Part shown: in pieces, positions 1,108-20,806 of the stretch
Layout: the number at the start of each line of letters is the position of its first letter
Position numbering within the stretch: the first letter of the stretch is position 1
Source of the DNA: a virus
UHGV virus genome: UHGV-0135983
DNA: 35,851 bases
Strand: one strand, 5' to 3'
The notes under the pieces: generated by a model
What the model saw: only the letters and a program-made list of their open reading frames with translations
Told to the model about the DNA's origin: nothing
Database searches by the model: none
Program-made: the position numbers and the translations under genes

Positions 1108-1161
1108 GCCTTACCCCTCGGGGGTTCACTGTGTAGTGAAGCGAGGGTAAGGCGTTAACCA

Positions 1162-1178
1162 GGTCGGAATCCTGACTA
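1162..1178 (-). promoter_or_regulatory. conserved late-junction element copy 1 (GGTCGGAATCCTGACTA on + strand), upstream of holin
   Basis: Invariant 11-mer GGATTCCGACC on the coding (-) strand shared with three other sites; 55 nt upstream of holin ATG. Confidence 0.5.
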
Positions 1179-1183
1179 AATAT

Positions 1184-3304
1184 TTAAGCGTTGAAACCAC
1201 CGACTCGAACTTTTAGCGTAGAGAGGTCAACATTAGCAGTTATGTTTAATACACCACTCCCCGCTGAAATAGAGAATAAGCGCCGTCCGCCTGACGTTCC
1301 GCCCCCCGCCGGTGGAGTGGTATCGAGTTCACCTGTGATCGATATTGAAATGGTACCCTCACGGTTAGCAACGAGTAGCTCTAAACATTCAGCCCAGGTG
1401 AATTGTGCTGACGACCATGCGTCAATAAAAATACGCTGAGTAGTTCGGTTTGGAATTGTGATGGATTTCACTTCCCCTGTATTTACCAGCCCCTGAAAAC
1501 GGGTTCCGTAATCTATCCAGCTGATACTGTACCCTGGCGACCCCGTTGTGGGATTTTGAGATGTATACCAGGTCTGAGTCCGCACTCCTGTATGACTGAT
1601 TGACTGGAGAGGTCGAGCAAACTGATCGCGGTGGATGTATGCATTCGCCCGTATACCATTACTTTGCAGATCTATATCTGCTGTTCGGGGGTTAGGATAT
1701 AAACCAGATCCCCCCACATCAAACATCGCATAATGATTTGCTACGGCGGGTATCCAGCCATTTCTGTCGAGGTTCCTGAAAAAATCTTCAAAGGCAAGCC
1801 AGTACGATTGCTGATGCCCAAACAAATTGGGGTGAACAGTCTGTATTTCCGGCGTCCGATTGAATAATGCCGTTTCGCCATATTTAGCTACAGCATCAAA
1901 CCAGTATTTTTCAACATCAATCAGCACACAGCCCATTTCTACCGCGATTTGCCTGATGGCATCGTTTCCACGCAGGAAGCGAACACCTGCCTGTATGTTT
2001 ACACCATTCCATTCAAACGTGACGTTTGACTCTGCCGCTGAAGGGATAATGTCCTCATCGGAAACAGGAAGTGGAGAAAATGATGGCCACACCTGATTAA
2101 CAGACGGCGGCATGCTCCAGCTGTACTCAGCTATATTTGGATGCGGTGTGGTTGTCAAAACAACATCACCGCCAGCCTCCCTGACTAAATTAATCGCGGC
2201 TCTAAGACGCTGCTTAAATCCATTTTCATTGAACGTTTGCCCGGCATTATAGTTTGCCGTTGGGAAATCATTCATACCATAGACAAAGAGCGCGATATCA
2301 GGATATACACCTTCTGCGACGACGCCAGACCACTGATTTACAATGAAGTTATTTATCGACGAACCATTAGCCCCCCTGTTTTCGAAAGTAAGAGGATAAA
2401 TTCCTTGTTTGTTAAGAGTTTTATTTAAGTATTCGAAAAACTTAGCGATAGGGGCTTGCGTTGCAGGATCTGGAAGTGTTGCACCCACTTGCACTGAACT
2501 ACCGAAACCGTAAGCTCTGAACAAATCCTGATAGCCGGTAACGCCATGCCGATAAGCTGTTAATTTATTAATAAACTTTGGAAACAGAGCCTGTGATGAG
2601 CCAGACGCAGCACGAATAGATGCCTCTACCGTTCTTCCTGTTTCAGTAGCAACTAAGCCAGCACCGTCCTTCGAAGCCAGCTTAATAGCCAGATCTGCAG
2701 TTTGAGTCTGTCCGGCGATCGGTACCGGGTTTCCCTGGTCATTAAATCCCAGAAGCATATTTGAACGCGGAGCCACCGGATAAAGCATGCCTACCTGATT
2801 TTCAGGAACGCGTAACGTACGGGAAAAGTTTACCTGTTCAGTTTGGATAACGTATTTTTTTGTAGCGGCGTCCTGATTATCAACAGGGTCCAGTAAATTG
2901 CTAATTCTGTATCCCTGAGCATTAAACGGCCCACCGGACAGCGGGCGAGTTATTGCCAGTCCGAGTTCGAGGAATGCCCGTTGGATAGCCATCCAGATAC
3001 GGTCAAAGTCCTTATTAATAGTATCCGCCAGTAAGTCCCCGTTATCCTGATAATCCGTTAACCGGAACGTCGGAACAACACGCTGTAACATAACGACAGC
3101 GCCATTCGCCGGCGGCGTCAGAAAGGAGATATCACCACCATCTTTATTTCCAACCCCCGCGACGGAATACCCACTGGTAACAATATTTCCGTTTATGCTT
3201 ACCTGCAGATCGCTGGCACTAATGATATAGAACTGGTACGTAAAAACGGTTGTCAGGCCGTTAGCCGTATAGATGTTATAGGGTATCTGGTTCGGTACCG
3301 ACAT
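1184..3304 (-). CDS. tail fiber / tailspike with T7 gp17-like N-terminal domain and possible SGNH-hydrolase-like central domain
   Basis: Start chosen at MSVPNQIPYNIYTANGLTTVFTYQFYI (GGAG RBS; longer ORF to 3367 would overlap the upstream gene); N-terminus has the T7 fiber-type pattern; central GFGSS / YGMND / VHPN motifs resemble SGNH esterase blocks. Confidence 0.7.
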   Translation of the reverse strand: MSVPNQIPYNIYTANGLTTVFTYQFYIISASDLQVSINGNIVTSGYSVAGVGNKDGGDISFLTPPANGAVVMLQRVVPTFRLTDYQDNGDLLADTINKDFDRIWMAIQRAFLELGLAITRPLSGGPFNAQGYRISNLLDPVDNQDAATKKYVIQTEQVNFSRTLRVPENQVGMLYPVAPRSNMLLGFNDQGNPVPIAGQTQTADLAIKLASKDGAGLVATETGRTVEASIRAASGSSQALFPKFINKLTAYRHGVTGYQDLFRAYGFGSSVQVGATLPDPATQAPIAKFFEYLNKTLNKQGIYPLTFENRGANGSSINNFIVNQWSGVVAEGVYPDIALFVYGMNDFPTANYNAGQTFNENGFKQRLRAAINLVREAGGDVVLTTTPHPNIAEYSWSMPPSVNQVWPSFSPLPVSDEDIIPSAAESNVTFEWNGVNIQAGVRFLRGNDAIRQIAVEMGCVLIDVEKYWFDAVAKYGETALFNRTPEIQTVHPNLFGHQQSYWLAFEDFFRNLDRNGWIPAVANHYAMFDVGGSGLYPNPRTADIDLQSNGIRANAYIHRDQFARPLQSISHTGVRTQTWYTSQNPTTGSPGYSISWIDYGTRFQGLVNTGEVKSITIPNRTTQRIFIDAWSSAQFTWAECLELLVANREGTISISITGELDTTPPAGGGTSGGRRLFSISAGSGVLNITANVDLSTLKVRVGGFNA

Positions 3305-3321
3305 ATGGGGAACTCCGGCGG

Positions 3322-4932
3322 CTAATAATCTACGGCGACCATGTGATCGCCATCGTTTGGTTGCCAATGTTCCCGCGCCTGTGCGGTCGGAATCCCGACC
3401 AATTTACCTATACGTACCGGAGTTGAGCTGATAGCACCGGAGCCGGAGTCGATAAAGTCATCGGGCTGATTAGTCAGCGCCGGGTTAAAGTCTCGCATCT
3501 GGTCGTACATTGGGCCGTCGAGCACGTCGGTGTGCGCCCAAAGGAACCGCGACGACAGCGGCGCTTCGAAGGCATCGAGGATGCGTTTCTGTTTATTGGT
3601 CACGCTGAATTCTTCCCGGACGCCGCAACCTGTACCCTTCAACGCCTGAATCAGCAATTTGCCGGCGAAGCTGCCCGGGCCGTTCACCTCGACGCAAATC
3701 AGGGGGATCTGATACTTCAACACCAGCTCTTTAATCTGCATCACCTGACCGCCGGTGATTTTGTCGTTGTCGTCAAATTCTGCCAGTTCGCCCGTAAGCC
3801 CCTGGCAAACATGCCAGTACAGATGCCCGCGCGCGTCGGTGAAAATCAGAGAGAACGCCGAGGCGTCGGCCTTAACTTTGCCGGTGGCCACATCCCACCA
3901 GGCGACAGCACCAACAATTTGCGTCTGGCCAAGCCACATCGAACAGGAGCGGTTCGCGTATCGGATTTCAGGCTGAACGTTGTATTCTCGGATACGGTCA
4001 GGATCAAGACGAACCTCGCCAACCGGTTTACTGTGCAGCTGGTACTGACTGTCCCATTCGTTAATTGTGCGAGTCTCGCGGCGGCGCTTTGTCATTTCCT
4101 CCGGAGTGAATCTTTCCGGCCATTCACAATCGGCGTAACAGTCAACCGTGGTACCGGGAGCCTCGGCAAACTCGATACCATCATCGTTAAGACGATAATC
4201 AACACCTTCAACGAGCAGTCGCGCGCCAATGTGAATACCGACGAAAACATATTCAGGCCGGAACGGTAACGAGTAACGGCTAGCGGTAGCCTGTTTTTCC
4301 TCGATGCGAAATTCTTTGCCGAATAGTTTGATGGTCAGACAGTCGGCGCCCATAGATTCAACCTCATCGTAAAGGCTATCGTGGGTATGCGGCGTGCCGA
4401 TAAACAGCTTTCGCCCGCCGGGGACAAGAATGTGTGTCTGTTCACCCAGACGATAACGCAGCTTTTCCCGCGCCTCCGGCGTCTGGATATTCCGGGGCAC
4501 TTCTACGTCATCGTTCTGACATTCATCGGCACGGGCCGAGGTGACGTTAGAGAGGATCCCCTTTGCGTACATGCTGCCGTTACGCATATCCAGCGAGCCG
4601 TTAACCCACCATTGCTCAACGGTTCCCTGTCCGTCGGGTAGCATACCTTTGGTCAGCGGATGATTGCGTAAAACGTTCTGCGTATCGCGGCTGGTTTTGT
4701 ACGCGGTGCCGTCAGCTTCAGACTGGTGAAGAATGCGGTACTGGCGGTTCTGGTAATATCGCCATGCGTTATACACCGCCAGAATGGTGGATTTTCCGAA
4801 GCCACGGAAACAGCGAAGCACCGCGAGATCCCCGCGGTGTTCCAGCCAGTGGCAGGCTCGATAATGGCAGTCGGGAACCTCCCACCCCATCCGCTCCGCC
4901 CATATGATGAAAAAGGCGACGAATGAAATCAT
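3322..4932 (-). CDS. terminase large subunit (putative)
   Basis: 536 aa; Walker A-like RGFGKSTILA near N-terminus, acidic Walker B-like ADECQNDD; sits between a small putative TerS and the tail fiber. Confidence 0.6.
   Translation of the reverse strand: MISFVAFFIIWAERMGWEVPDCHYRACHWLEHRGDLAVLRCFRGFGKSTILAVYNAWRYYQNRQYRILHQSEADGTAYKTSRDTQNVLRNHPLTKGMLPDGQGTVEQWWVNGSLDMRNGSMYAKGILSNVTSARADECQNDDVEVPRNIQTPEAREKLRYRLGEQTHILVPGGRKLFIGTPHTHDSLYDEVESMGADCLTIKLFGKEFRIEEKQATASRYSLPFRPEYVFVGIHIGARLLVEGVDYRLNDDGIEFAEAPGTTVDCYADCEWPERFTPEEMTKRRRETRTINEWDSQYQLHSKPVGEVRLDPDRIREYNVQPEIRYANRSCSMWLGQTQIVGAVAWWDVATGKVKADASAFSLIFTDARGHLYWHVCQGLTGELAEFDDNDKITGGQVMQIKELVLKYQIPLICVEVNGPGSFAGKLLIQALKGTGCGVREEFSVTNKQKRILDAFEAPLSSRFLWAHTDVLDGPMYDQMRDFNPALTNQPDDFIDSGSGAISSTPVRIGKLVGIPTAQAREHWQPNDGDHMVAVDY
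3385..3402 (-). promoter_or_regulatory. conserved late-junction element copy 2 (GGTCGGAATCCCGACCAA), inside terminase 3' end, upstream of tail fiber
   Basis: Same invariant 11-mer; lies within the last ~27 codons of the upstream CDS, 84 nt before the fiber ATG at 3304. Confidence 0.5.
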
Positions 4933-5270
4933 TTTTTCCGCTGTTGTATGCGTTCGATAACTTCCTGTGCTGCACGTTCAGCGGCAGATACCTGTTGGCC
5001 CAGGCGGAATGCTTCATCGTCCGGATCCTCGCCGGGTTTAGGCGTTCCCCCGCGCGTATGCATGCCAATCAGCGAATGGACTTTTACCAGCAGGGTTAGC
5101 GATGCGGCCGCATTCTTCTTATGCCAGTACCGATCGCCGCGTTCCTGTTTGGTGTGCTTTGTGACTTCCTTCCCTGCCCCCGGCCAGTTATCCGGATCGG
5201 CTTCTTCAAGAACTACATCGGTGAGCTTATCGCTAAGAGCGGTCAGGCGGGTTTTGTAATCTGAATGCAT
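4929..5270 (-). CDS. terminase small subunit (putative, by position)
   Basis: 113 aa, immediately upstream of and overlapping the putative TerL start; no recognisable motif. Confidence 0.35.
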   Translation of the reverse strand: MHSDYKTRLTALSDKLTDVVLEEADPDNWPGAGKEVTKHTKQERGDRYWHKKNAAASLTLLVKVHSLIGMHTRGGTPKPGEDPDDEAFRLGQQVSAAERAAQEVIERIQQRKK

Positions 5271-5317
5271 AAAAAAGCCCCGTGGTTATCCATAGGGCTA
5301 TAATGTGCCGGGCTAGA

Positions 5318-5333
5318 GGTCGGAATCCTGACT
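5318..5333 (-). promoter_or_regulatory. conserved late-junction element copy 3 (GGTCGGAATCCTGACT), upstream of putative TerS
   Basis: Same invariant 11-mer, 45 nt upstream of the ATG at 5270. Confidence 0.5.
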
Positions 5334-5404
5334 ATTGCATATGCAGCGATGTACGTATAAAACTAGCCGACATTAATATAATCATTTTCATTCAGAGGCT
5401 CCCT

Positions 5405-5842
5405 GTGAAAACTTTATTCCCCTTAATACTGTTTATCGTAACTTCTACCGTTTGCGCCAAAGAAGTTAAATATGACTTTCCTCCAGATGGGGAAATGGCA
5501 AAATCACTCAAACCAGAAATTGTTGGCGTGGCTAATTATGAAATGGTCAATAGAAGCGTGCGCTTAAAAGCTTTAGATGTTGGTGAAAAAAATGTTTCTC
5601 TCCTGGTAGTCATAGGTGCTACCGACACCAGAAAACCCGTTACTCAAGCTAACATCCCTGACAAACAATCAATCTCATTAACTAAACAGCAAATTGTGAA
5701 CAAATATTGTGCACCATTCGGGTATGGCAATTGGTACTTTGATGCCTTCAAACAGCGGGGTGTAAAACTGCACTATTACTTTTACTCGGCAGTAGACACC
5801 CCGTTATTTACATTCACGGTAAATAAATCTGATTGCGATTAA
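5405..5842 (+). CDS. secreted hypothetical protein (moron, opposite strand to virion genes)
   Basis: GTG start with AGAGG RBS 7 nt upstream; N-terminal signal peptide VKTLFPLILFIVTSTVCA; AT-rich relative to flanks; TATAAT-like boxes at 5299..5304 and 5377..5382; stop overlaps the convergent internal virion gene stop. Confidence 0.5.
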   Translation: MKTLFPLILFIVTSTVCAKEVKYDFPPDGEMAKSLKPEIVGVANYEMVNRSVRLKALDVGEKNVSLLVVIGATDTRKPVTQANIPDKQSISLTKQQIVNKYCAPFGYGNWYFDAFKQRGVKLHYYFYSAVDTPLFTFTVNKSDCD

Positions 5843-8733
5843 CGCATACCGGGATCGACCTGGTTAATCAGCGGCGCAATCCAGAACAGATTATTACCGG
5901 GTAACAGCGTACGCACGTTATGCAGCACACGGTCGCCGGCGTCGCCATTCAGCACGCCGGCGGTTACATCTGTAACGGTATCCAGCAGGCCAAAGGTTGG
6001 CCCCAGAGCAGAACCGATAAAGCCGCGGCTGGCGTAACGGGACTGCGTACCGGTGCCGAGCAATGGCCCTAGCCCTACCATCCCGCCGGATGCCTTTTCA
6101 GCCATGTTGTTATATTCCATCAGTGGACCGAGGATACCAGAACGGTCGATGCCCTCGAGAACCATCTTCTGCGGGGTCAAATCAACTTCCCGGCCATTAG
6201 CCGCCTGCTTAAGCGCATAGGTCAAAGAGCCCAGGCCAATCTGGAAGGCGGTGCCGTAATAGAACTGCGCGGTACCTTCCTGCAGGCCGCCGAGCGTTGC
6301 GCGATTATAGGATGCCGTAGCAAAAGACTTAAACTGGAATACGGTTTTCCCCAGCGGGGTACTAGCCCACAGCGGCGTATCACCGATCCCCGGCGTGATA
6401 ACTGTATTGTTTACGTCTTTCAGTACCGCGGATTGCAGCAAACCGGCGGCGTACTGGTCATCCCATTTTTCGAAATTGCCGATATGCCAACCCTGAATAA
6501 CTTCGCCGTGCTTCTGAAATTCTCGCTGGATGCGTTCGGCCATCTTCTCATTGATGCCGAGTTTTGCCAGGCGCTTCGCAGGGAACGCGCCGGACAGAAT
6601 ACCGTCGGACGTGATCATGCCATTCACCGATTTGTTCATATCGTCAAAGTGGCCCATCATGGTCAACTTGCCGAACACATCGGTAATACGTTCCATGCCA
6701 GCTTCTGCAGCTGTCGTACGTGAAGAGCTATCGACCAGATCCCCCATCGTACGCGCGCGGGTATGCAGTATGGTTTCAAGTCCAACGGCCATTTTCTTCT
6801 GATCCGCCCGGCTGGCGAGGTAAGCCGGCGAGCGGGTAATCAGTGCGCCATATCCACGCATGGTATTGCTGAAGCCGTTAACCATCATGCCGCGCGCCAG
6901 ATCCGGGATAGCGGATACCGTCATGCCACCGAGTTTTGTTACAAAGTTGGCGCTACGCAGGAAAGCACCGGCGCGGACGAAAAATGATGATGGGTCATCC
7001 GGCATACCGTAGGTACCAACGAGGCGATCGCGGAGCGCCAGAATATCGCGCAGGTCGGCTTCGCGCGCCTTCGCCAGCTTTTCCTGTTCTGCCGGGCGTA
7101 AACGCATCAGCGCGTCGTATTCGTCCTGGATGGCGGCGAGCTGCGAATCCAGCGACTTATTGCCAAAGGTGCGGGTTAATTCGATTTCTGCTGAGGCTTC
7201 ACGAATATGACGCTGCAGGACGTAGTTAGCATCGCTCTCCAGATAATCTTTCATCAGGCGATCGGGAACGCTCAACGTACGCGATTTTGTGCTACCCGGC
7301 GCTTTCACCATAAAGACGTTGGCGAACTCCTGCGGAATTTTGGCCCCGACAATACGGTTGATAGTGGTATCTGCGGCAATTTCGGCATCTTCGCGGGACA
7401 TGGTTTTTTCACCGCGTGACCACCAGTCAACCAGCATGTTGCGGAATTTATCGCGCTCGCTAACGATTTTCCCTACCTTGTACACGCGTGGGAAATAGCT
7501 GGTCTGTCCCATCGCTTTCAGTTCGGCATCCGGCGGAAGTAAACCCAGTTCCTGCTGTGCCGTCTTCACACGATTGATGACCGTACGCATTGCCTGTGCC
7601 GCTTCCTGCACTTTCGCATTAACGTGCACGTCACCGTTGCGCAGCGCCTCGCCAACCTGTTCACGGAAGGCCGTATAACCCAGATCGCCGCCTTCGGCTT
7701 TGTACTGGGTGTATGCCTGCTTATTCGCAGTAACGACGGCCGCCTCTTCACGGCGCCAGCCACGTACGCGCGTCTCAGCTGCAACCGGCGTTTCAATACC
7801 GCGCAGGTTGCCTTCCAGCGTGAAGTTATTCTCTGCAAGTTCCAGCGCTGTCCGGCGCGCTTCTTTTGATGGGGATTCCATCAGGCGGGTGATCGGCGTC
7901 AGATAGCTACCGGCTTTTTTAGCCAGCTTGCCTAGTGGGCCGCCAGACACCGGTGTGAGATCATCCAGCGTAGCTTCGCGGATACGCATGGCGCCGACGC
8001 TGCCACCATTCGGTAAAGTATCCGCCAGGGCATCAGCTGCGTTGTTAATCGTTGGCGAGGCGTTCATATTATCGAGCGCCTCCGCCACTTCACGGGTGGC
8101 CGCATTTCTTACCGACGGGGTGATCATCGCGCCAGCAGTGGCAAATACACCGCTGAGAAGTGCGCCGGCAGTAATGTGTGCGGCGCTCTCCCTGGCTGTT
8201 CTGGTGTACTGCTCGTTATTGAGCGCAACCTCGCTAAGTGCGGTACCGGCAGCGCCAATAGCAACCTGAGAACCAATACGCGCAGCCAAGCTTCCCTGCG
8301 CACCAGGAATAAACATCGATGCGACCGTGACAGGGTCGATAATTCCGGCGGCGATACTAGCCAAAGTTCCTTCAGCGCCTGTTTCAGACAGCACCCGGCG
8401 GTCTTCGTTTTCATCGTCTATCTGGTTTTTAATCCAGGCGGTTTCCTCTGGGGATTTTGAATCCGCAAAGGCGGATCCCCATTGTTCGTACCCCTTTAGT
8501 TCGTTTTTATCAGAATAAGGGTTATAACCGTCCGCCGGTTCGAATTGTTTAGCCGGGCGGAACATTCCGGCCAGCAGGTTATTCTGACGAAAAGCGGCAT
8601 CCCATACAGACGGTTGCTGTTGCAGCGGTTCCGGGTTAGTTCCTTTAGGCAGAGATACATCAAAACCAGTTGGCTCCTGAAGAGCATTATCCATTACGCT
8701 TAGCGGTTCGTCAGATTGTGGGTAGAAAGGCAT
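5839..8733 (-). CDS. internal virion / ejection protein (T7 gp15/gp16-like, large)
   Basis: 964 aa, directly follows the SLT-domain protein with overlapping stop/start; position and size as in T7-type core proteins. Confidence 0.55.
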   Translation of the reverse strand: MPFYPQSDEPLSVMDNALQEPTGFDVSLPKGTNPEPLQQQPSVWDAAFRQNNLLAGMFRPAKQFEPADGYNPYSDKNELKGYEQWGSAFADSKSPEETAWIKNQIDDENEDRRVLSETGAEGTLASIAAGIIDPVTVASMFIPGAQGSLAARIGSQVAIGAAGTALSEVALNNEQYTRTARESAAHITAGALLSGVFATAGAMITPSVRNAATREVAEALDNMNASPTINNAADALADTLPNGGSVGAMRIREATLDDLTPVSGGPLGKLAKKAGSYLTPITRLMESPSKEARRTALELAENNFTLEGNLRGIETPVAAETRVRGWRREEAAVVTANKQAYTQYKAEGGDLGYTAFREQVGEALRNGDVHVNAKVQEAAQAMRTVINRVKTAQQELGLLPPDAELKAMGQTSYFPRVYKVGKIVSERDKFRNMLVDWWSRGEKTMSREDAEIAADTTINRIVGAKIPQEFANVFMVKAPGSTKSRTLSVPDRLMKDYLESDANYVLQRHIREASAEIELTRTFGNKSLDSQLAAIQDEYDALMRLRPAEQEKLAKAREADLRDILALRDRLVGTYGMPDDPSSFFVRAGAFLRSANFVTKLGGMTVSAIPDLARGMMVNGFSNTMRGYGALITRSPAYLASRADQKKMAVGLETILHTRARTMGDLVDSSSRTTAAEAGMERITDVFGKLTMMGHFDDMNKSVNGMITSDGILSGAFPAKRLAKLGINEKMAERIQREFQKHGEVIQGWHIGNFEKWDDQYAAGLLQSAVLKDVNNTVITPGIGDTPLWASTPLGKTVFQFKSFATASYNRATLGGLQEGTAQFYYGTAFQIGLGSLTYALKQAANGREVDLTPQKMVLEGIDRSGILGPLMEYNNMAEKASGGMVGLGPLLGTGTQSRYASRGFIGSALGPTFGLLDTVTDVTAGVLNGDAGDRVLHNVRTLLPGNNLFWIAPLINQVDPGMR

Positions 8734-11447
8734 TATTCATTACTCCATGAAAAGTAGTTTTTGACCCTGTTCATACGCTCATCATGTAAGCGCTGATACT
8801 GTTCATCGAGAGCACGATGTTTTTCCTTAAAGCCCCGAATATCTTTACCACGTAATATTTCCTCTTCGCCTTGTTTCTCCCTCTCCTGCTGCATTTTTTG
8901 ATATGGCCCCCATTTTTCAATGTCAGGTTTCCAGCGCATGGGACGACCAAATTTATCGTAATAAGGCTGTACGCTCTCGATTCCATCTTTATCTTTCATG
9001 CGAACAACAACTGAATATTTGCGGTCGCGAGGGGTATCCAAATCAGGCGTAATCTCTAACTCTCCACCAATACGAGATTCAGGTGTATTGGTGGTTATTA
9101 CGGGCGCAGCCCCGGAAGTTATTCCAAGCTCTGTTGGGCTCGTTAATATTTCTTTACTGCGTTCCCCATACATTAGTTCTTCTTTTTCTTCTTTCCACTG
9201 TGCAGCCTGCCACCCTGCCGGGCCATAATTATAAAGTGCTTCAGGTGCATATTTCATAAACTGGGCGCTGCCATTTACATCGCTAATACTCCATGTTCGG
9301 GATATCTGTACGTTGGTCATTTTTTTAGCTAATTCGGCGTTACCACCCGAATTGCGATAATTGATGTCATACAATGACTGGTAGTCATTACGGAATTTTA
9401 CAGCATTAGGATTCTGGTCATCCGCAGCGGGACCGCCAAAGCTGTACCATGGTTTCATGCTGCTGACTGCAGAATCCATCGCGCTGGCACGCTCTTTTTT
9501 GTACTCCTTCGTGCTCTGTGTAGAAGACAATTGAGATTTCAGTGCGTCGGTCTGGTTGTAGGTCACGTTCTGTGCTTGTTTTACAGCCGCATCGGGTGCC
9601 ATTCCAGCATCGGATAACTGTTTAACTGTCAGGTAAAAACTTTGCATATCCTTTGGCATGTCGCTAATAGATGCAGGATCCGCCCTGTACAGGGAATCGA
9701 ACAAATTAGCCCCCTGCTTCACCACGTCTGGGCTATCAGAGCGAGAAATAGCATTCAGCTGCGATGTAACTTGTGATGGGATAATGCCCGTCTGGTTAAC
9801 CTGCTGCACGATGGCGTCGTGAGTGGTGGCGTCGTTAATGCGGAAGTTAAGCGCCGATGGCGTATTGTCCGCCGCCTTCTGCATGGATTTGTTGCTCGGG
9901 TCGAGTTTCTCGCCGGAGATCAGCGCGTCGTTAAAGCGGGTAGCATCACGCTGCGCCTGAATATTGGCGTTGCTCTTCTGAACCAGCGCACTAAGTTTGC
10001 CGTACGCATCGAGTTTCAATGCGTAATCCGGGTCGTTTGCCTGCGGCTTCACTTTCGCCAGTTCGGCCTGCTGCTCTGCCGGGGTGACGTACTGGATAGC
10101 CTGGAAGGTTCTGGCGGTATCGATCGCGATATCCAGTTGCTTTACTACCTGCTGCCCTTTCTCGCCGTACATGAACATGATGGTTTCGGCATTAGGCATC
10201 GCTTCGGGAACATCACCATTGTACAGCTGAGAAAATGTATTATTAACGATGGGCTCCATCTGCTGGCGCAGCGCCGCTCGCTGTTCTCGGATCTGCGATT
10301 CGGCGATATTGTCGATTTTGTTTACCGCTACCGGGTCGAGGCCAGTTTTATTTTTGTTGTAACGGGAAAGCCAACCACGCGTTTCGGCTGGCAGCTGCTT
10401 AACGAAATCCGCCATTGAGATTTCGCCTTTGCGCGGATCGCCAACTTTAGCGATCAGCTTATCGACGTTACCCATACCCCAGTTATATGCAGCACCGGCC
10501 AGCGTTTCAGACTGATATTTTTTACTGAGCTGCCCGGCATAATCGCGCGCCAGCTGCGCATGCTGCACAGAGTCGTCCGGGTTGTACTCTACTCCACGTT
10601 TAGCCGCCAGTTCTTTCCCGGTGTCCGGCATCAACTGAAATTCACCCTGCGCGCCCGCGGGGGATGTAACAAGGCTACCATCTGCATTGCGGTGCTTGCC
10701 GCCAGATTCCACCAGGCCAACGGCGCGCATATCAAGTTCGCCGGTGCTGCTGTTGACCAGCGTAAAATCGCCATTAAGCCAGCCGGTGGGATTGGTTACT
10801 GCGTAGTTCTGCGCGCGCTGCTCCAGCGCTTTTTGATTCGCTTCGGAGACCGCACCGTCGATGCGTTCCTGCGACCAGCCGCGAGCCTGGCCATACATCT
10901 CGATCGAGTGTTTACGGGCGCTGCGTATCAGCCCCGCCTGCATCGGGTTATCGTAGGCGCTGGCCTCCTGTTCAACTGAAGAGGTCACCGTCGCGTTAAG
11001 CTGCTGGCGCTGGGCTTCCTCAGTCTGCGCCCGTTCGAAACCGCTATAGGTGCTTGTCCGGCGTACCTGCCCCGCTTTCCACTGCGCATCAAAATAGTTT
11101 AACTGGCTGGGCGGCACGCGCTTGCGCGCTTCCTCGTAATCGCCAGCGTCGGCCTTATCCATATCGATGACCACACCTGACGATTTAAAGCCCTGACGCG
11201 TAACCGTGGCGCCCGTCTCCGGGTTTTCCCAGCGGTCATTAGATTTAGCTTCCAGATCGGTCAGAATAGCCTGCGTGGCCGCGACGTCGGCTTTATCCTG
11301 ATCACGCTGCACCTGCTCTGCTACCTGCCCAGCAGCAGCGCCAAAACCAGATACTGCGTTACCCACAGCGCCCACATTGCTGACTGCGACGCGCGTAGGT
11401 TGTACCTGCGGCGTTACATTGCCAAAATTACCCGTTGGAATTCTCAC
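8733..11447 (-). CDS. internal virion protein with soluble lytic transglycosylase (SLT) domain
   Basis: 904 aa; SLT signature GLVESGG...GAQGEFQLMPDTG...AYNWGMGNV (catalytic E-S, Q-L-M-P, AYN-G blocks). Confidence 0.75.
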   Translation of the reverse strand: MRIPTGNFGNVTPQVQPTRVAVSNVGAVGNAVSGFGAAAGQVAEQVQRDQDKADVAATQAILTDLEAKSNDRWENPETGATVTRQGFKSSGVVIDMDKADAGDYEEARKRVPPSQLNYFDAQWKAGQVRRTSTYSGFERAQTEEAQRQQLNATVTSSVEQEASAYDNPMQAGLIRSARKHSIEMYGQARGWSQERIDGAVSEANQKALEQRAQNYAVTNPTGWLNGDFTLVNSSTGELDMRAVGLVESGGKHRNADGSLVTSPAGAQGEFQLMPDTGKELAAKRGVEYNPDDSVQHAQLARDYAGQLSKKYQSETLAGAAYNWGMGNVDKLIAKVGDPRKGEISMADFVKQLPAETRGWLSRYNKNKTGLDPVAVNKIDNIAESQIREQRAALRQQMEPIVNNTFSQLYNGDVPEAMPNAETIMFMYGEKGQQVVKQLDIAIDTARTFQAIQYVTPAEQQAELAKVKPQANDPDYALKLDAYGKLSALVQKSNANIQAQRDATRFNDALISGEKLDPSNKSMQKAADNTPSALNFRINDATTHDAIVQQVNQTGIIPSQVTSQLNAISRSDSPDVVKQGANLFDSLYRADPASISDMPKDMQSFYLTVKQLSDAGMAPDAAVKQAQNVTYNQTDALKSQLSSTQSTKEYKKERASAMDSAVSSMKPWYSFGGPAADDQNPNAVKFRNDYQSLYDINYRNSGGNAELAKKMTNVQISRTWSISDVNGSAQFMKYAPEALYNYGPAGWQAAQWKEEKEELMYGERSKEILTSPTELGITSGAAPVITTNTPESRIGGELEITPDLDTPRDRKYSVVVRMKDKDGIESVQPYYDKFGRPMRWKPDIEKWGPYQKMQQEREKQGEEEILRGKDIRGFKEKHRALDEQYQRLHDERMNRVKNYFSWSNE

Positions 11448-11452
11448 GTTTA

Positions 11453-11941
11453 TTACTCCGCATATAATCCGTATTTGCCAGTTTTAGCCTTTTGCCAGCC
11501 GCTGTACGCCGTCCCGCCGGCGCTTAATAGCGAACTGCCGGCGCTGATATTTCCAGCCGTCGCCGCATTCCTGCCACTGATACGATCGGCCTGTGCCTGC
11601 GCCTGCAGACGGTTAGACGAATTCACGCCATTAAGGATCGTCTGGTAAGCGTCCTGCTCTGCGTCTTCGGTAATGCCAGAAGTAATGCGCAGTGCAGTGC
11701 CTTCGCCGGTTTCCACACCTGACGCCGCCAGCGAAGCGTTAGCCGCTGCAGCCTGTTTACGCCCTGCTTTACGGATGCGGTCGGCTTCCACCCGTGCGGC
11801 TTTCTGACTCGCCTCGGCGTCAGCTTCCGCCTGTGCAGCCTGATAGTTCGCCATTTTTTTCTGCTGCTGCCCGCTATACGCTGCGCCGCCAGCGGCCAGC
11901 ACTGAGGACGCTATTACAGCGATTTCTACGCCAGTGCACAT
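11453..11941 (-). CDS. internal virion protein A (T7 gp14-like)
   Basis: 162 aa, starts MC, Ala/Gln-rich, immediately upstream of the large internal virion proteins. Confidence 0.5.
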   Translation of the reverse strand: MCTGVEIAVIASSVLAAGGAAYSGQQQKKMANYQAAQAEADAEASQKAARVEADRIRKAGRKQAAAANASLAASGVETGEGTALRITSGITEDAEQDAYQTILNGVNSSNRLQAQAQADRISGRNAATAGNISAGSSLLSAGGTAYSGWQKAKTGKYGLYAE

Positions 11942-11943
11942 CG

Positions 11944-12396
11944 TTAAACCTCCATCGAATAAAGCAGGCCTGTTTGCTGCAGGCCGAGACGCGAATACAA
12001 CTGGCCGGTGCGTTCTGCGTGCACCCCAGTGGTGATCCCCATGTTGATAACGGCGGCGCCGTGCTCTTTTGACCAGTCGATAAAGGCGCGTGCCAGTCGC
12101 GGCCCGGCGCTGCCGCCTCGATGTTCTGGCGCGACAAATAAGCCGTATTCAAAAGCCATCAACTGGCGGGAGAAAAATTGCTCTGCGATACCGCCGCCAA
12201 GCCAGCCGATCACATGCCCGTCTTTTTCAGCGACCAGCACACAACCAGACGGCGAATAAATCAGGCTCTGCGCCAGTTCTGCACATTTATCCGCGTCAAA
12301 CGGCGAATTTAGCGAGTAACGGGACTCGAGATACATCCGGGTCCCCAACTCGATAAGCGCCGGGATATCCCCGGCTGTGGCGTTACGAATCATCAT
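11944..12396 (-). CDS. GNAT-family N-acetyltransferase
   Basis: Start taken at MMIRNATAGDIPALIELG, overlapping the tail tubular B stop as TAATG; acetyl-CoA motif A-like VAPEHRGGSAGPRLARAF; longer 216-aa ORF would overlap the upstream gene by ~200 nt. Confidence 0.7.
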   Translation of the reverse strand: MMIRNATAGDIPALIELGTRMYLESRYSLNSPFDADKCAELAQSLIYSPSGCVLVAEKDGHVIGWLGGGIAEQFFSRQLMAFEYGLFVAPEHRGGSAGPRLARAFIDWSKEHGAAVINMGITTGVHAERTGQLYSRLGLQQTGLLYSMEV

Positions 12397-14384
12397 TAGC
12401 CCCCGTTGCTGGTAAATACGATGACAATGGCGAGAAGATGAAATGGCAGCGGCTGGCGCTGCTGAATAGTCAGCGTGTCTTCTCCGCGCTCCCAGCCAAG
12501 TTTTCCCCAGTAGTGATCGCCGGTGAACAACGGCGCCGGCTGGTTGAGGATTTTTGGCCCGAACGTGCGGAACGGGATCACCTGGCCGTTGCACTCTGCG
12601 CCAGTGGTTTCGAGGAAACGCATAGTGACTTCACTTGTGCGCTTACGGGTGTTCTGCGTGGTGCCTTCAGACGTGGCGACTTCAGGTGTCAGCGTGGTAA
12701 TGGTTGTTTCAAAGTGCAGGCCGATTTCGACTTTGTAGGCTTTGCGCGATAGCGTGATTTGGCCGGATGAAACGACCGCCTGCGGCATCACTGAGCCATC
12801 AGCGACAATATCGACGGTCTCGCCTTCGAGGTGCGACAGTCCGCCCCATGTCGTTGCGCCAGTATCACTGGAGCCCGTCACGGCTGCATCGGTGTACAGG
12901 GCGTTACTGAACATTTCGACATAGCGAACGGTCTGGCCGTTGACCGTACGGCGCACAATGGCGTACACCACATCGTCAGTCGCTGAGGGAATAGTCGCTA
13001 CGGACTCAAACGCACCACTGGTGATCTGTCGTGACCACGCGACAACGTTCTGCACCCGGTCGATAGCCATTGTCACCATTACGCCATCATTGCGAACCAG
13101 CCAGGTAAACGCATCAGGTTGCTGCTGATACGCCATATCGATCACACCGCCTTCTGTGATGTGTTCCGCCAGTACAGTCATATCGTTGGCCGAGTAAGCT
13201 ACATAGCTGTCGGGGTCATAGGCGACAGCGTAGAGCTTACGGCCAGAACGCTGGACGAACATAATTTCGGTACCGACGCGCACCGGCCGGATCCCGTTGC
13301 ATCCGTACGGGCTGGGATTTTTTACCGAAATATTGGTAGGCGTAATCGCCGCATCATTGCCGGCGGTGATGGTGAACTCGCCGCCGTACGTCAGCGCAAT
13401 TAGCGTATTCATCTGCGCGAGGTGAACAATCGGGTTAAGCTGGTCAGAAGAGAGCGTAAAGCTGATCGCGTCGTCGTCATCGGTTCCCAGCTCGAAAGAG
13501 AGGTATACGCCCGATTCGCTCCACCAGATAGTTTGCGGATACTGCGGCGAACCAGCCAGAACCAACCGCTGCTGGTAAAGCGTTACCGCACCCGGGTATC
13601 CAAATTCATCCGTCCAGACAGAATCCTCGCGAGTCCAGGCGCCCGGCGATGCTGCCTGCGTTGCGCTTAAATCGGTGCGAATGGTACCGACAGCAACCTG
13701 TGCACTGGTTACGCTCTTGATCAGCACCAGACCGCTGTTAATCCTTACGTACGAGCCCACATCTTCAGGCACCCAGCCATCACCGGTGAGCGTTCCGTCT
13801 CCGCTTTCTGGCGGTTCATCATCGCTCAGTGTCAGCGTGATTTCCGAGCCGACGAATTCTTTCACTGATGGCTTGCACCACTTTTGCGGTGTGTCGCGTA
13901 CTTCGTCGAAGGGTTCAACGATAAACGGCGCCGGTTCCAGAACCCAATCGGTTTGCCCGCGTCGCTGCAGGCGATACGGTTTAACGGCCTGATGCACCAG
14001 AAACATGGTATCGGCGCCCTGAACGTAATTTACCGATGGCAGCATGTCAGAGGTGTACGGGCTGGCGATTTCATACGGCGTGTTATCGTCGTTCACCAGC
14101 TGCTTACCGTCCTGGTAAATTCGCAGATAGCCGTCGCCAAATTCCAGAATGTACGCCTGCGTGCGGTTAAAAACGTACGGAATGAGGCGGGATTTTTTAT
14201 CACCGTACTTTGTGGCCGCTACATACTGCGAACCGGGACGACGCATTACCCCGCCCTGTACCACGACCACGCTATTTTCCAGCGTCTTCGCGCCGTTCGC
14301 ATAGCGATCGATATCCACGCGCCCCATAAGACGTGGGGAAATTTCGCCGGCGGTGAAGTTGGTTTTAATCAGACTGGCGCGCAT
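12396..14384 (-). CDS. tail tubular protein B (T7 gp12-like)
   Basis: Start at MRASLIKTNFTAGEISPRL (GAGG RBS), similar in pattern to the gp12 N-terminus; follows tail tubular A. Confidence 0.7.
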   Translation of the reverse strand: MRASLIKTNFTAGEISPRLMGRVDIDRYANGAKTLENSVVVVQGGVMRRPGSQYVAATKYGDKKSRLIPYVFNRTQAYILEFGDGYLRIYQDGKQLVNDDNTPYEIASPYTSDMLPSVNYVQGADTMFLVHQAVKPYRLQRRGQTDWVLEPAPFIVEPFDEVRDTPQKWCKPSVKEFVGSEITLTLSDDEPPESGDGTLTGDGWVPEDVGSYVRINSGLVLIKSVTSAQVAVGTIRTDLSATQAASPGAWTREDSVWTDEFGYPGAVTLYQQRLVLAGSPQYPQTIWWSESGVYLSFELGTDDDDAISFTLSSDQLNPIVHLAQMNTLIALTYGGEFTITAGNDAAITPTNISVKNPSPYGCNGIRPVRVGTEIMFVQRSGRKLYAVAYDPDSYVAYSANDMTVLAEHITEGGVIDMAYQQQPDAFTWLVRNDGVMVTMAIDRVQNVVAWSRQITSGAFESVATIPSATDDVVYAIVRRTVNGQTVRYVEMFSNALYTDAAVTGSSDTGATTWGGLSHLEGETVDIVADGSVMPQAVVSSGQITLSRKAYKVEIGLHFETTITTLTPEVATSEGTTQNTRKRTSEVTMRFLETTGAECNGQVIPFRTFGPKILNQPAPLFTGDHYWGKLGWERGEDTLTIQQRQPLPFHLLAIVIVFTSNGG

Positions 14385-14385
14385 G

Positions 14386-14949
14386 TCAGAACCTCGATTC
14401 GTACGTTGGATAGCCGCCAAGCTCTTCCGGCGGGTCTTCCTGACCATCTACCGCTTTCGCCTGCTTCAGCAGTACCAGCGATTCCTGGGCGATACTGTCG
14501 CGCAGACTGGTAGAGCCGGTGACGGCATAGGCCAGCTTTGCCTGCATCATCATTTCTGCCACATCAACGAGCGCGGCATCCCAGGTGGATTCGTCTTCGT
14601 TGCGGAACACATAACGCAGCTTCAGTACCTGCACGTTCGCCAGCAGCCGGTTTCCTTCGACGCGGTACGGGATATCGTCGTAAGGTTCCCCAACGGACAG
14701 AACGCGAAGAAGATCACCGGGTAGTGCGAACTGAAAGCGGAAACCGAATACCGGTGCCGTACTGACAGGAGAGAGAACCACACGTTTTACAACGCAGTTC
14801 CACGGATGCACGCGCAGTAGCTTATTGCGTACGGTGGGATAAAGGTTTGAGCACAGGCGGGCGTGATCGGTGTTTTCGTCGAAACTGTTAATCGGGTGAG
14901 CACCGAGCGCCAGCAGTGCGTTAGAGCAGATAGAAATACTGTCAGCCAT
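14386..14949 (-). CDS. tail tubular protein A (T7 gp11-like)
   Basis: 187 aa, directly downstream of capsid gene and terminator. Confidence 0.6.
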   Translation of the reverse strand: MADSISICSNALLALGAHPINSFDENTDHARLCSNLYPTVRNKLLRVHPWNCVVKRVVLSPVSTAPVFGFRFQFALPGDLLRVLSVGEPYDDIPYRVEGNRLLANVQVLKLRYVFRNEDESTWDAALVDVAEMMMQAKLAYAVTGSTSLRDSIAQESLVLLKQAKAVDGQEDPPEELGGYPTYESRF

Positions 14950-14963
14950 AGCCTTACCTCAGA

Positions 14964-14992
14964 TGAAAAAAGGCCGGGAGATATCCCCCGGC
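14964..14992 (-). terminator. intrinsic terminator after the capsid gene (T-phi-like position)
   Basis: On - strand: GCCGGGGGATATCTCCCGGC hairpin followed by CTTTTTTC. Confidence 0.7.
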
Positions 14993-15008
14993 AAAGGCAC
15001 CAGCGGCT

Positions 15009-15920
15009 TTATGCTACGAAATCGATGGCGACTACTTTGTTTTCCGCTGCGCGGCCTGCACCATAGGACGCATCGACGGAAATCTGAATGGTGTTGTTTT
15101 TATCGCGGCGCGGGCCGATATCGACGTTGTACTCTTCGCCGGTACCAAAATGCACAGCAGATTTACACCAGGCTGCGGCGGTTTTGGTGGTTACAGCGGG
15201 ATCACCTGCTGAAGCAGAATCCAGTTTTTCATACGCCAGCCACTTAAAGCCCAGCCAGTTACCAGACACTGCGCCTTCCTGCAGCATTTTCACTGCCATA
15301 AAGTCGGCGCTGGTCAGCGTGGTATCGCTGAGGATTTGGGTCAGCATGTCGGCGTTGTAGGTGATATACAGCTCTTCACCGTTCTGCTCGTCACACTCGT
15401 TACGGCGGAACATGGCTTTCGCGGCGATCAGCTTCGCTTTGGTCATCCCTGTACCGCCAGCAACGATTTTCTGCGATGCAGGCAAGGCAACTGGAGCGTA
15501 CGCGCCAGTATTGGAGGTTTTACGCAGAACGGTATCGAGCAGCGCGCGATAAATAACATCGTCTTTTTTGCGGTTGGATGCGGCCAGCGTCAGCTGCAAA
15601 TATGGCCCCTGCGGGTCAGCCAGCAGTTTGCGCAGGTCGCGCTTTTCCACTGGCACGAATACGCCATAGTCAGCCATCAGCGCATTACGGGTGCCGGCAT
15701 CAGGCAGATCCCAGACGGTATCACCGAAACGCTCGGTGATCTGGGTCATTTCGATGGTACCCATATCGTTGATGGTGAACGACGCACCGGTAATATTGCC
15801 ACGGTCGTAAACAGCAGCTTGCAGGCGGGAATCCTTCTGCTGTGCGGCAATTTCGAAAGAATCATGGAACTGCTGAACAAACGCAGCGGTGATCATGTTC
15901 TTAGCGGTATCAAATGACAT
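15009..15920 (-). CDS. major capsid protein (T7 gp10-like)
   Basis: Start at MSFDTAKNMITAAF with GGAGTGA RBS; 303 aa; pattern ELYITYNADMLTQIL resembles gp10 VFYCDPDSYSAIL. Confidence 0.8.
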   Translation of the reverse strand: MSFDTAKNMITAAFVQQFHDSFEIAAQQKDSRLQAAVYDRGNITGASFTINDMGTIEMTQITERFGDTVWDLPDAGTRNALMADYGVFVPVEKRDLRKLLADPQGPYLQLTLAASNRKKDDVIYRALLDTVLRKTSNTGAYAPVALPASQKIVAGGTGMTKAKLIAAKAMFRRNECDEQNGEELYITYNADMLTQILSDTTLTSADFMAVKMLQEGAVSGNWLGFKWLAYEKLDSASAGDPAVTTKTAAAWCKSAVHFGTGEEYNVDIGPRRDKNNTIQISVDASYGAGRAAENKVVAIDFVA

Positions 15921-16068
15921 AACAATCACTCCAGAAAGTATCGCCTGCGGGGTATCGGTTTCCCGGCCCAAATCAGCACAATGCGGTTGGCGCTGGCGCA
16001 TTGCGGGAAAATCAGGTATCCGGCGTCCCCGCCGGGCTGGTTGTGGAGTGATTGTTAGCGAGGAGAGC

Positions 16069-16084
16069 GGTCGGAATCCCGACC
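16069..16084 (-). promoter_or_regulatory. conserved late-junction element copy 4 (GGTCGGAATCCCGACC), in capsid leader
   Basis: Same invariant 11-mer, ~150 nt upstream of the capsid ATG; leader also has a 12-bp inverted repeat pair at 15921..15932 and 16047..16058. Confidence 0.5.
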
Positions 16085-16109: not shown

Positions 16110-16994
16110 TTACCCTCTGGGTTCTTTTATCCTATAACCTGTGCCAGGCATGAATTCATCAATAACTCTTGCCGCGTGACCTATAACTCGAAACGCTGAG
16201 CGTGCTTCTTCATCGGTAATTTTAGTCGCTTTAGTCGGGTCATAATCAGGAGTTTGGTCATCGTCAAAATGTACTCGATAGCCAAATTTTGATATTTCTC
16301 TGAAAATGGAACTAACTGACCTATCAATAGTTGCCATAGTGTCCATTAATCTATTTTTATCCTCCTCAATTTTATTTTTTATTTTCTCATAAGGGCCTAG
16401 CTCATCTACTAAATCTTTAAGAGCATCCGACTTAGAATTTATTTCACCTTCAATTTCATTAAGTTTCCCTTCCGCCAACTCAAGCTTCGAACTTAAAATA
16501 TTAAATTGTTCTTCAGCTTCTTCATATGACTTCTTAATGCTCTCGATATCATGTGTAACTTTAGTAACCTTGAGTTCTTCTTCTGCATTCCTTTTTGCAA
16601 ACAGAGATGTTTGATAAGCTAGTGCGCTATCTGCTTTAGCTGTGTATTCAGCAATGATTTCACGAGCCTCACTCTCAGATTTTGCCCTTTTGATATCGTT
16701 ACCATCAGCGATTTTTTGCGCGCATCTTTGAAAAAAACTCACAGCATGACTAGCATAAGGAAAAAGAACGGCAATAATAAAACCCAAAAGGATAGGAGCA
16801 ACTACAGAATACCAAAAAATACATGGTTCACTTTTCACTTTAATGATTCTATCTTGTAGTTCTCCACTACCCATTAAAACTATCAATAAACTATCCCAGT
16901 TAAACCCCAGCCATGAGAGGACTATGAACCCGAAAAGAGGAGTGTTTATTCTTTGAATTAAAGTTTTCTTTACCGCATCAGCTAATTCGTCCAT
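16110..16994 (-). CDS. membrane-anchored coiled-coil protein (AT-rich moron between scaffold and capsid)
   Basis: 294 aa; two predicted TM helices then a long Glu/Lys-rich coiled-coil region; visibly AT-rich; AAGGG RBS; candidate promoter and an upstream terminator. Confidence 0.6.
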   Translation of the reverse strand: MDELADAVKKTLIQRINTPLFGFIVLSWLGFNWDSLLIVLMGSGELQDRIIKVKSEPCIFWYSVVAPILLGFIIAVLFPYASHAVSFFQRCAQKIADGNDIKRAKSESEAREIIAEYTAKADSALAYQTSLFAKRNAEEELKVTKVTHDIESIKKSYEEAEEQFNILSSKLELAEGKLNEIEGEINSKSDALKDLVDELGPYEKIKNKIEEDKNRLMDTMATIDRSVSSIFREISKFGYRVHFDDDQTPDYDPTKATKITDEEARSAFRVIGHAARVIDEFMPGTGYRIKEPRG

Positions 16995-17063: not shown

Positions 17064-17095
17064 AAATAGAAAAAGCCAGCGAAGTTATACTGGCC
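17064..17095 (-). terminator. putative intrinsic terminator after scaffold gene
   Basis: On - strand: GCCAG...CTGGC hairpin followed by TTTTTCTATTT. Confidence 0.45.
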
Positions 17096-17115
17096 TTTGA
17101 TATTACCGTGGCGTG

Positions 17116-20491: not shown

Positions 20492-20509
20492 TCCTGAATT
20501 AGTGAGTCG

Positions 20510-20806
20510 TCATTGTGTGTTGCCCTTCTGGTCAGTTTCCCGACCAAAAACAGGGCGGCGGAACGTCCACCACTGCCGATAAAGCACTGTGGGGAGTTTT
20601 TTACGGTCTGAGCTGGTAGCCAGACACCAGAGAGCGATAAGTGCCTCACCGTGACCGTGGCGAGGTTCTGATCCGGATTTCCAACCGAGAACGGCAGATT
20701 TCGAAACGCCAAGTTCATCGGCGATTTGCTGAGTGGTGAGGTTTTTTCGTGTCAGGTCAGTAATGACTCTGAACCAGTCTGTACGGAAGGTGGCGACCAG
20801 CGGCAT
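20510..20806 (-). CDS. HTH DNA-binding protein (possible late regulator)
   Basis: 98 aa; helix-turn-helix-like LTTQQIADELGVSKSAVLGW; AGGGGG RBS. Confidence 0.5.
   Translation of the reverse strand: MPLVATFRTDWFRVITDLTRKNLTTQQIADELGVSKSAVLGWKSGSEPRHGHGEALIALWCLATSSDRKKLPTVLYRQWWTFRRPVFGRETDQKGNTQ

Follow-up and report, generated by a model that had tools for sequence, protein, structure and literature searches.

A 16-bp box with a fixed-distance -10-like hexamer at the late-gene junctions of a temperate T7-like podophage, and a linked helix-turn-helix protein as its candidate activator

The viral genome UHGV-0135983, a stretch of 35,851 nucleotides that was analysed as a whole and is called the window below, is essentially one prophage, probably of a temperate podophage with Klebsiella or Raoultella as its host, and carries at the junctions of its late genes a short repeated element, here called the box, which we read as part of a set of late promoters. 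The minus strand carries all late genes, in the order two small genes, portal, Bbp19-like protein, scaffold, capsid, tail tubular proteins A and B, a GNAT protein, internal virion proteins, small and large terminase subunits, tail fibre, holin, lysozyme, and spanin. The genes of the early region are of the lambda type, with NinB, Ref, methylases, DnaB, RepO, Cro, and CI; separate CI and Cro-like genes occupy the immunity region at 29065-29744, and the plus strand holds a RecE-like gene and an integrase. The initial annotation, made from the window alone, had described the virion genes as a T7-like module without a phage single-subunit RNA polymerase, and both points were borne out: Pfam assigned a T7 tail-fibre N-terminal domain, a T7 terminase RNaseH-like domain, and Head-tail_con to the module, and no RNA polymerase domain was detected in any large open reading frame (ORF) of the window using Pfam, NCBIfam, and PHROGs. 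The closest relatives by DNA identity are the E. coli prophages L001 (approximately 90%) and L002 (approximately 80%), and the Yersinia phages YeP4-6 share 84% capsid identity with the window.

The core of the box is the 11-mer GGATTCCGACC, which occurs exactly four times, always on the minus strand (1162-1172, 3385-3395, 5318-5328, and 16069-16079). Shuffling gave a mean of 0.49 matches, with no shuffle out of 100 yielding as many as four, and no further copy was present in the window at up to one mismatch. The four copies had been reported before at these late-gene junctions within the extended form (T/A)(A/G)GTC(A/G)GGATTCCGACC, with which the flanking sequence agrees, and the full unit is a 16-bp imperfect inverted repeat, RGTCRGGAWWCCGACC, taking the form GGTCGGGATTCCGACC or AGTCAGGATTCCGACC, whose arms GGTCGG and CCGACC flank a central GATT and are preceded by A/T-rich sequence. 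A fifth, degenerate copy, GGTCGGGAAACTGACC, which had been missed, was found at 20545-20530, at the 3′ end of the gene for a 98-amino-acid (98-aa) helix-turn-helix (HTH) protein and ahead of the first late gene. A hexamer of the -10 type, nAnnAT, lies exactly 12 bp 3′ of each box, the sequence of the spacer being free, and all copies are aimed at the downstream gene, with 54-155 nt between the box and the start codon (29-130 nt from the hexamer). The earlier statement that the copies sit upstream of late genes holds insofar as all are junctional, but the copy at 3385-3400 is not intergenic and falls within the 3′ end of the terminase large-subunit (TerL) gene. The elements of the putative late units are the following:

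20510-20806, minus strand: gene of the 98-aa XRE/Cro-type HTH protein, the predicted late activator and last gene of the early-right operon
20512-20545, minus strand: putative late promoter 1, a degenerate site with box GGTCGGGAAACTGACC (20545-20530) and a hexamer, CACAAT (20517-20512), that overlaps the stop codon of the HTH gene; transcription predicted to begin near 20505, ATG of the first late gene at 20482
17071-17098, minus strand: intrinsic terminator after the scaffold gene, at the end of the first late transcription unit
16051-16084, minus strand: putative late promoter 2, for the capsid gene, with box GGTCGGGATTCCGACC (16084-16069) and hexamer AACAAT (16056-16051); transcription predicted to begin near 16044
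14973-14992, minus strand: intrinsic terminator after the capsid gene, an 8-bp stem with seven G-C pairs and then a T-run
5300-5333, minus strand: putative late promoter 3, for both terminase genes, with box AGTCAGGATTCCGACC (5333-5318) and hexamer CATTAT (5305-5300); transcription predicted to begin near 5293
3367-3400, minus strand: putative late promoter 4, for the tail fibre, with its box at 3400-3385 and hexamer GAACAT (3372-3367); transcription predicted to begin near 3360, fibre ATG at 3304
1144-1177, minus strand: putative late promoter 5, for the lysis genes (holin, endolysin, spanin), with box AGTCAGGATTCCGACC (1177-1162) and hexamer TACCCT (1149-1144); transcription predicted to begin near 1137, holin ATG at 1107

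The HTH gene thus ends inside the first of these elements, a position that also carries a box in L002, in YeP4 (L123), and in the related phages L125-L130. The box before the capsid gene is likewise kept in relatives, where the scaffold terminator directly abuts it, and the terminator previously proposed to follow the capsid gene is present as the stem and T-run at 14992-14973. At the terminase site, the hexamer is followed by a hairpin and a run of six T and then immediately by the ATG at 5270. The fibre site is embedded in the 3′ end of the TerL gene, the box codons there reading V-G-I-P-T. A reading of CGCTAACAAT, which follows the capsid box, as a boxA of the rrn/lambda kind was rejected since the other sites are without it.

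The second block is conserved well beyond the window. Across 123 unique sites selected by motif, an A was found at +14 in 111 and a T at +18 in 106, with a variable spacer between box and hexamer. As a guard against circularity, loci picked by protein homology alone were rescanned for boxes with at most two mismatches, and 45 of the 48 unique boxes obtained in this way carried both the A at +14 and the T at +18, the three exceptions being opposite-strand or chance matches; other offsets were conserved in at most 9 of the 48, and of 20 chance matches of a related pattern, two carried this A and T. Hexamers such as GATACT and AATCAT occur elsewhere in addition to those of the window. The conserved A and T fit the -11 A and -7 T, the two most important positions of a sigma-70 -10 element, and alignment on the hexamer puts the box at about -40 to -25, with its centre near -32.5. 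A -35 hexamer is absent, the position reading GGATTC, unlike TTGACA; a sigma-70 -35 element inside the box was considered and none was found, and a sigma-70 consensus scan called no promoter at the box sites. The pattern of a -10 signature at fixed distance, a poor -35 region, and a linked gene for a phage DNA-binding protein is that of activator-dependent sigma-70 promoters.

The strong conservation of the box across hosts of very different G+C content is also what promoters of phage polymerases display, and several conserved late proteins carry no function assignment, so the box might be thought to serve a dedicated polymerase or sigma-like factor, an unrecognised enzyme of phage or host, in place of the HTH protein. 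We consider this highly improbable, given that the two-block architecture with its -11 A and -7 T fits sigma-70, that no RNA polymerase or sigma domain was found in the window ORFs tested, that no RNA polymerase is annotated in the complete YeP4 genome, and that phages with another junction motif also have the conserved first late proteins.

Regarding the protein that would recognise the box, the 98-aa HTH protein, named for testing in the initial annotation, is the best candidate. It is 98-100% identical to Klebsiella and Raoultella entries, and a profile search recovered 240 protein clusters from Enterobacterales, Burkholderiales, and Pseudomonas, all annotated as hypothetical. No Pfam or NCBIfam family reached its cutoff, and a sequence search of solved structures returned only generic HTH matches (E > 0.2). 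In the distant phages L100 and L118, a homolog of the HTH gene lies directly 5′ of the first box. When six genomic contigs were picked by HTH homology alone (25-48% identity; Bordetella, Massilia, Pseudomonas, Castellaniella, Sodalis, and a metagenome), the box was found just 3′ of the HTH gene in all six and was repeated before the capsid gene in five, the Pseudomonas contig having another ahead of its lysis cassette. Likewise, a sub-family profile built from a 10-sequence alignment identified 18 viral loci, 16 of which contained the box, 6-35 nt after the HTH gene in 14 and approximately 500 nt after it in two; a second box followed 3.3-5.7 kb downstream in 11 of those 16, and opposite-strand matches amounted to at most one. 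Together, box and HTH gene co-occur in 22 of 24 loci picked by protein homology alone. In the reverse direction, 15 loci selected by motif encode the HTH protein, always upstream of the boxes. The gene is retained with the late module across the window, L002, and YeP4 despite unrelated early modules, a lambda-like O/DnaB set in the window versus DNA polymerase/primase genes in L002 and YeP4.

Other candidates for the binding factor were rejected. The 149-aa and 73-aa first late proteins have homologs in phages with a different junction motif and are therefore not considered specificity factors. A 112-aa protein (22315-22653, minus strand; PHROG 536, 'transcriptional regulator'), with a Cys-rich C-terminus, CRKCG...CPCAGDSKC, is not conserved with the late module. 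A host protein is disfavoured because the boxes vary in concert within single phage genomes.

The XRE-type fold of the HTH protein, the PHROGs annotation of its family as 'transcriptional repressor', and the overlap of the box with the -35 region, a typical place for an operator, would suit a repression operator through which this protein, or the prophage repressor system, holds the late promoters off, as XRE-type proteins are usually repressors. Yet with the -35 absent and the -10 weak, the promoters should be inactive without help, and the HTH gene belongs to a lytic early operon beside the late genes, not to the immunity region, where CI and the Cro-like protein are encoded. Repression is in our judgement quite unlikely to be the function of the box.

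The position of the HTH gene as last early gene before the late genes is that of lambda Q, which raises the alternative of Q-like antitermination, in which the HTH protein would load at the box, next to the nAnnAT hexamer as a sigma-dependent pause element, join polymerase that had started upstream, and render it resistant to terminators. The late region does contain intrinsic terminators, a terminator-like hairpin with six T follows the terminase box, and the distance from box to hexamer resembles, by analogy, the spacing between Q-binding element and pause element familiar from the lambda and phage 21 Q systems. We nevertheless regard this alternative as unlikely. There are five sites instead of one, no conserved promoter is found 5′ of the boxes, and in many relatives 6-12 nt separate the HTH stop codon from the box. 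The terminator-like hairpin is found at one of the five sites, and its 5′ arm would lie upstream of the predicted start. The protein itself has an XRE-type fold without similarity to Q families and did not match the Q families of Pfam. A lambda-type arrangement, with a Q-family protein and a single loading site at a constitutive promoter, was not found in the window.

The search for the motif in related prophages, which the initial annotation had proposed as a check, placed the box at the same junctions in E. coli prophages, in Yersinia phage YeP4, and in distant phages of Bordetella, Massilia, and Pseudomonas. The prophage L001 has the four boxes of the window, and L002 has these four plus a perfect fifth ahead of its first late gene. 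A scan of viral contigs found more than 120 stretches with a box, many with several copies at the spacing of terminase and fibre, including G+C-rich phages of other hosts. The 11-mer is invariant, as had been stated, within the window only, since relatives carry variants, among them AGTCGGGAAACCGAAC (YeP4), AGACGGGATTCCGCTC (L129), and ...CCGACA (L127), and the central tetranucleotide may be GAAT, GAAA, GAAC, or GATC. The GAAA/GAAC variant is present in four of the five boxes of YeP4, including the TerL copy, and its holin box (1915) is of the GATT/GACC type, unlike the other four, which suggests that the lysis cassette of this phage may have been acquired by recombination at the box.

That 'foreign' holin box could also be taken to mean that the box is mainly a recombination linker at module boundaries with no regulatory role. 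The boxes do border cassettes that can be exchanged: window and L002 have different fibres, L002 has an acyltransferase inserted ahead of its holin box, and the window has a 294-aa ORF inserted ahead of its capsid box. Such a function would leave the strand specificity, the hexamer at fixed distance, and the linkage to the HTH gene unexplained, and any role in exchange is more likely a by-product of shared promoters; as the main function of the box, it seems to us extremely unlikely.

The same variants bear on whether the box acts as DNA or as RNA. In RNA, the 16-mer could fold into a stem of 6 bp with a 4-nt loop. In an alignment of nine phages, however, the pairs of this stem were either invariant or broken and never compensated, the variants of L129 and YeP4 breaking it without compensation, from which we conclude that sequence comparison confirms the box as a DNA site recognised by a protein rather than an RNA hairpin, as initially annotated. 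The argument offered for this at first, that the G/A differences between the two variants of the window are uncompensated, carries little weight when only the window is considered, since these changes are G-U wobbles on the opposite strand, so that it is the relatives that carry the conclusion. Additionally, the C-terminus of TerL in YeP4 changes from VGIPT to VGKPN in step with the box variant, which is the clearest indication that the constraint is on the DNA and not on the protein.

A role in RNA would make the box a protein-bound hairpin for processing or stabilisation by way of RNase III or RNase E, or for translation activation like that by Mu Com, through the opening of a fold-back. Besides the possible stem, which both variants of the window would still form through G-U pairs on the opposite strand, the box lies just 5′ of sequences that pair with ribosome-binding sites (described below). 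The missing covariation and the stem-breaking variants speak against such a role, as do the length of the stem, since 6 bp is too short for RNase III, the invariant +14 A and +18 T across five unrelated contexts, which it leaves unexplained, the absence of a fold-back partner at the first late site, and the DNA-binding fold of the candidate protein. We hold it to be very unlikely, and the earlier analogy between the box and RNase III sites, in particular, did not stand, with a 6-bp stem and no covariation.

Our preferred reading, to which we give a probability of roughly 0.68, is that the 16-bp box is the activator-binding element of five late promoters used by host sigma-70 RNA polymerase together with the 98-aa HTH activator of the phage. 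The HTH protein (20510-20806) would be made as the final product of the early-right operon and would bind the box, probably as a dimer given that the centres of the two half-sites, GTCGG and CCGAC, are separated by 10 bp. Filling about -40 to -25, the usual place of the -35 element, the bound protein would substitute for -35 recognition and recruit the host polymerase to the weak -10 hexamer 12 bp downstream. Binding, activation, and start sites are predicted in this scheme, which would yield five units: the first late genes together with portal and scaffold; capsid, from which transcription would read through into the genes for tail and internal virion proteins; the terminases; the fibre; and holin-endolysin-spanin. 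The terminators after scaffold and capsid would separate units and probably set stoichiometry.

Several points weigh against this reading. Everything in it rests on sequence. The hexamer does not have the usual T at -12, which makes the -10 assignment weaker than the textbook case, and at three sites the hexamer also lies inside conserved RNA pairing that possibly contributes to its conservation there. The first box of the window is degenerate, with three mismatches, the PHROGs label of the HTH family is the repressor one noted above, and two of the 18 viral loci bearing a homolog are without a box. The linkage between protein and motif is also not universal in the wider group. Alcaligenes phage Piluca (L124) and Acinetobacter phage TPWB-05 (L131) have related virion genes and a different junction motif, CACCCAACAAAC(C), which stands ahead of several late genes, the first one and those of terminase among them (at 7, 19459, 22691, and 24200 in Piluca, and at 25753, 20859, 11947, 8449, and 3474 in TPWB-05), most copies being followed by a hairpin, a T-run, and an ATG; TPWB-05 has a divergent HTH homolog located away from the late genes, and Piluca has CACCCAACAAAC but no homolog.

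When compared to known systems, the proposed arrangement is analogous to those of phage Mu C, lambda CII, and restriction-modification controller proteins. According to PMC2582627, Mu late promoters have a -10 without a -35 and are served by host RNA polymerase with a small phage HTH activator bound to an imperfect dyad that extends into the -35 region. The likeness to Mu C, and to Mor at the middle promoter, lies in the several -10-only late promoters and the small phage HTH activator predicted here; in contrast to Mu C, the protein of the window has an XRE-type fold, the sequence of the box is unrelated, and no match to the Mor/C family of Pfam was obtained in 43 members of the HTH family at E up to 0.1. 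The geometry differs as well, with the box centred near -32.5 and, as a matter of general background, the Mu C site near -43.5.

The controller (C) proteins of restriction-modification systems, which are small XRE-type HTH dimers, recognise a palindromic site that overlaps the -35 region and act as activators by way of sigma-70. The XRE-type HTH fold is shared by the phage protein, the likeness being at the level of the fold only (14-19% identity, Foldseek E of about 0.03-0.2). The C-box reads GACT-N3-AGTC, whereas the box here reads AGTC-N8-GAC(C/T), the HTH gene is linked to phage late genes and not to restriction-modification, and the phage protein has extra N- and C-terminal beta strands. 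Lambda CII, which acts at PRE, PI, and PaQ, is an HTH activator of about 97 aa with a site at about -40 to -25 in promoters without a good -35, so that protein size and a site straddling the -35 region are similar; CII binds direct repeats, TTGC-N6-TTGC, and drives lysogeny, in contrast to the inverted repeat and late genes found here, and the HTH protein did not match Phage_CII of Pfam.

As for T7 itself, the initial annotation had compared the copies to class III promoters. The comparison holds for position, as phage-specific elements are repeated at late junctions, with one directly before the capsid gene and a terminator after it as in the T-phi arrangement. It fails for architecture, since a box and a sigma-70-type -10 separated by a free 12-bp spacer replace the contiguous promoter of about 23 bp, and there is no single-subunit polymerase to read one.

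The regulatory logic of a small HTH activator acting on a -10 without a -35 is already well known, for example from Mu C, while this box and this HTH protein family appear to be undescribed. The box sequence, searched in the literature on either strand, matched only unrelated primers, and in the article library searched, queries on YeP4, BPP-1, and temperate T7-like phages found no account of the box or its regulator. The prediction provides a testable map of late transcription, with five promoters, two terminators, and one candidate activator, for a widespread but unstudied group of temperate podophages, which includes prophages of Klebsiella, Raoultella, Citrobacter, Salmonella, Serratia, Yersinia, Bordetella, Achromobacter, Massilia, and Pseudomonas. 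It also offers a predicted function for a protein family of approximately 240 clusters annotated only as 'hypothetical' and a possible route by which a T7-type virion module could be expressed without a phage RNA polymerase, and the box with its activator would form a compact, apparently host-independent switch with potential as an orthogonal expression part.

A further layer may lie between the predicted promoters and their genes. Between about -18 and +3, the capsid, holin, and fibre promoters carry sequence complementary to the ribosome-binding site of the gene that follows. Read-through RNAs were folded in comparison with RNAs beginning at the predicted start, and duplex energies were compared with those of 2000 control 21-mers. 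The features of these leader regions are the following:

15921-16044, minus strand: structured leader of the capsid mRNA, approximately 124 nt, from an alignment of nine phages with RNAalifold
16043-16060 with 15916-15934: capsid fold-back, -21.5 kcal/mol, reached by 0 of 2000 controls
1142-1154 with 1108-1120: holin fold-back, -24.6 kcal/mol, reached by 0 of 2000 controls
1108-1154, minus strand: holin hairpin, its 5′ arm CCTTACCCTCG holding the -10 hexamer and its 3′ arm CGAGGGGTAAGG being the holin ribosome-binding site
3362-3378 with 3305-3320: fibre fold-back, -18.6 kcal/mol, p = 0.023
Terminase site: fold-back of -10.6 kcal/mol, not significant on its own

The first late site showed no pairing beyond chance, its -4.7 kcal/mol being reached by approximately 70% of the controls. 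The capsid pairing covaries among enteric subgroups, as AACAAT/ATTGTT, ATTAT/ATAA, and CTCCC/GGGAG. We hypothesise from these pairings that read-through transcripts would fold back and hide the downstream ribosome-binding site and that transcripts from the box promoters would lack the inhibitory arm, because the starts, if the promoters are real, lie downstream of it. In the fold-back inhibition known from IS10 and IS50 (Tn10 and Tn5), an anti-ribosome-binding-site segment is carried by transcripts that enter from outside, and the promoter of the element itself starts its transcripts beyond this segment. The likeness is that read-through RNA here contains a complement of the ribosome-binding site that RNA from a box promoter is predicted to lack; the differences are that this is a phage late region with three or four such promoters, that the inhibitory arm overlaps the -10 hexamer, and that the present case is a prediction from sequence.

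A tentative and rather doubtful extension of this hypothesis gives the late promoters a second function as a translational safety lock, the stretch between the -10 hexamer and the start serving as the anti-ribosome-binding-site arm at capsid, holin, and fibre, with the hairpin and six T in its place before the terminase. If so, transcripts entering from upstream, including those of early genes and of morons active in the lysogen, would be untranslatable or terminated, and translation would proceed only from transcripts started by the HTH activator. Box, activator, and fold-back arm would then constitute a portable late cassette that functionally replaces the polymerase and class III promoters of T7, and a promoter-embedded anti-ribosome-binding-site of this kind, if real, would be a new way to tie toxic late genes such as holin to one promoter.

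The capsid leader is of interest in its own right. It is conserved from enteric phages to those of Bordetella, Massilia, and Pseudomonas, contains two repeated units of the form GCC-[hairpin]-GAYAMCC, and shows compensatory changes at five pairs of its hairpin in the RNAalifold analysis of nine phages. The folding energy of the whole leader was no better than that of shuffled sequences (z = 0.27), and no Rfam family matched. It may be an undescribed cis-regulatory RNA. Scans of the window with Rfam and for tRNAs found no known RNA genes.

Two ORFs within the late region deserve mention:

16110-16994, minus strand: 294-aa coiled-coil ORF, an insertion that separates the scaffold terminator from the capsid promoter
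5282-5842, plus strand: opposite-strand ORF between the 964-aa virion gene and the terminase promoter

The 294-aa ORF is probably a moron and is absent from L001 and L002, where scaffold terminator and capsid box abut. The ORF at 5282-5842 has a homolog annotated in L001 and none in L002, and because it interrupts the late region, the terminase genes need a promoter of their own. Finally, in the early-left region, the 12-mer GAGGAAAGACCA occurs five times on the plus strand (30557, 30605, 30758, 31419, and 34596), at least one copy lying directly 5′ of a start codon (31431), and it looks like a reused ribosome-binding-site context.

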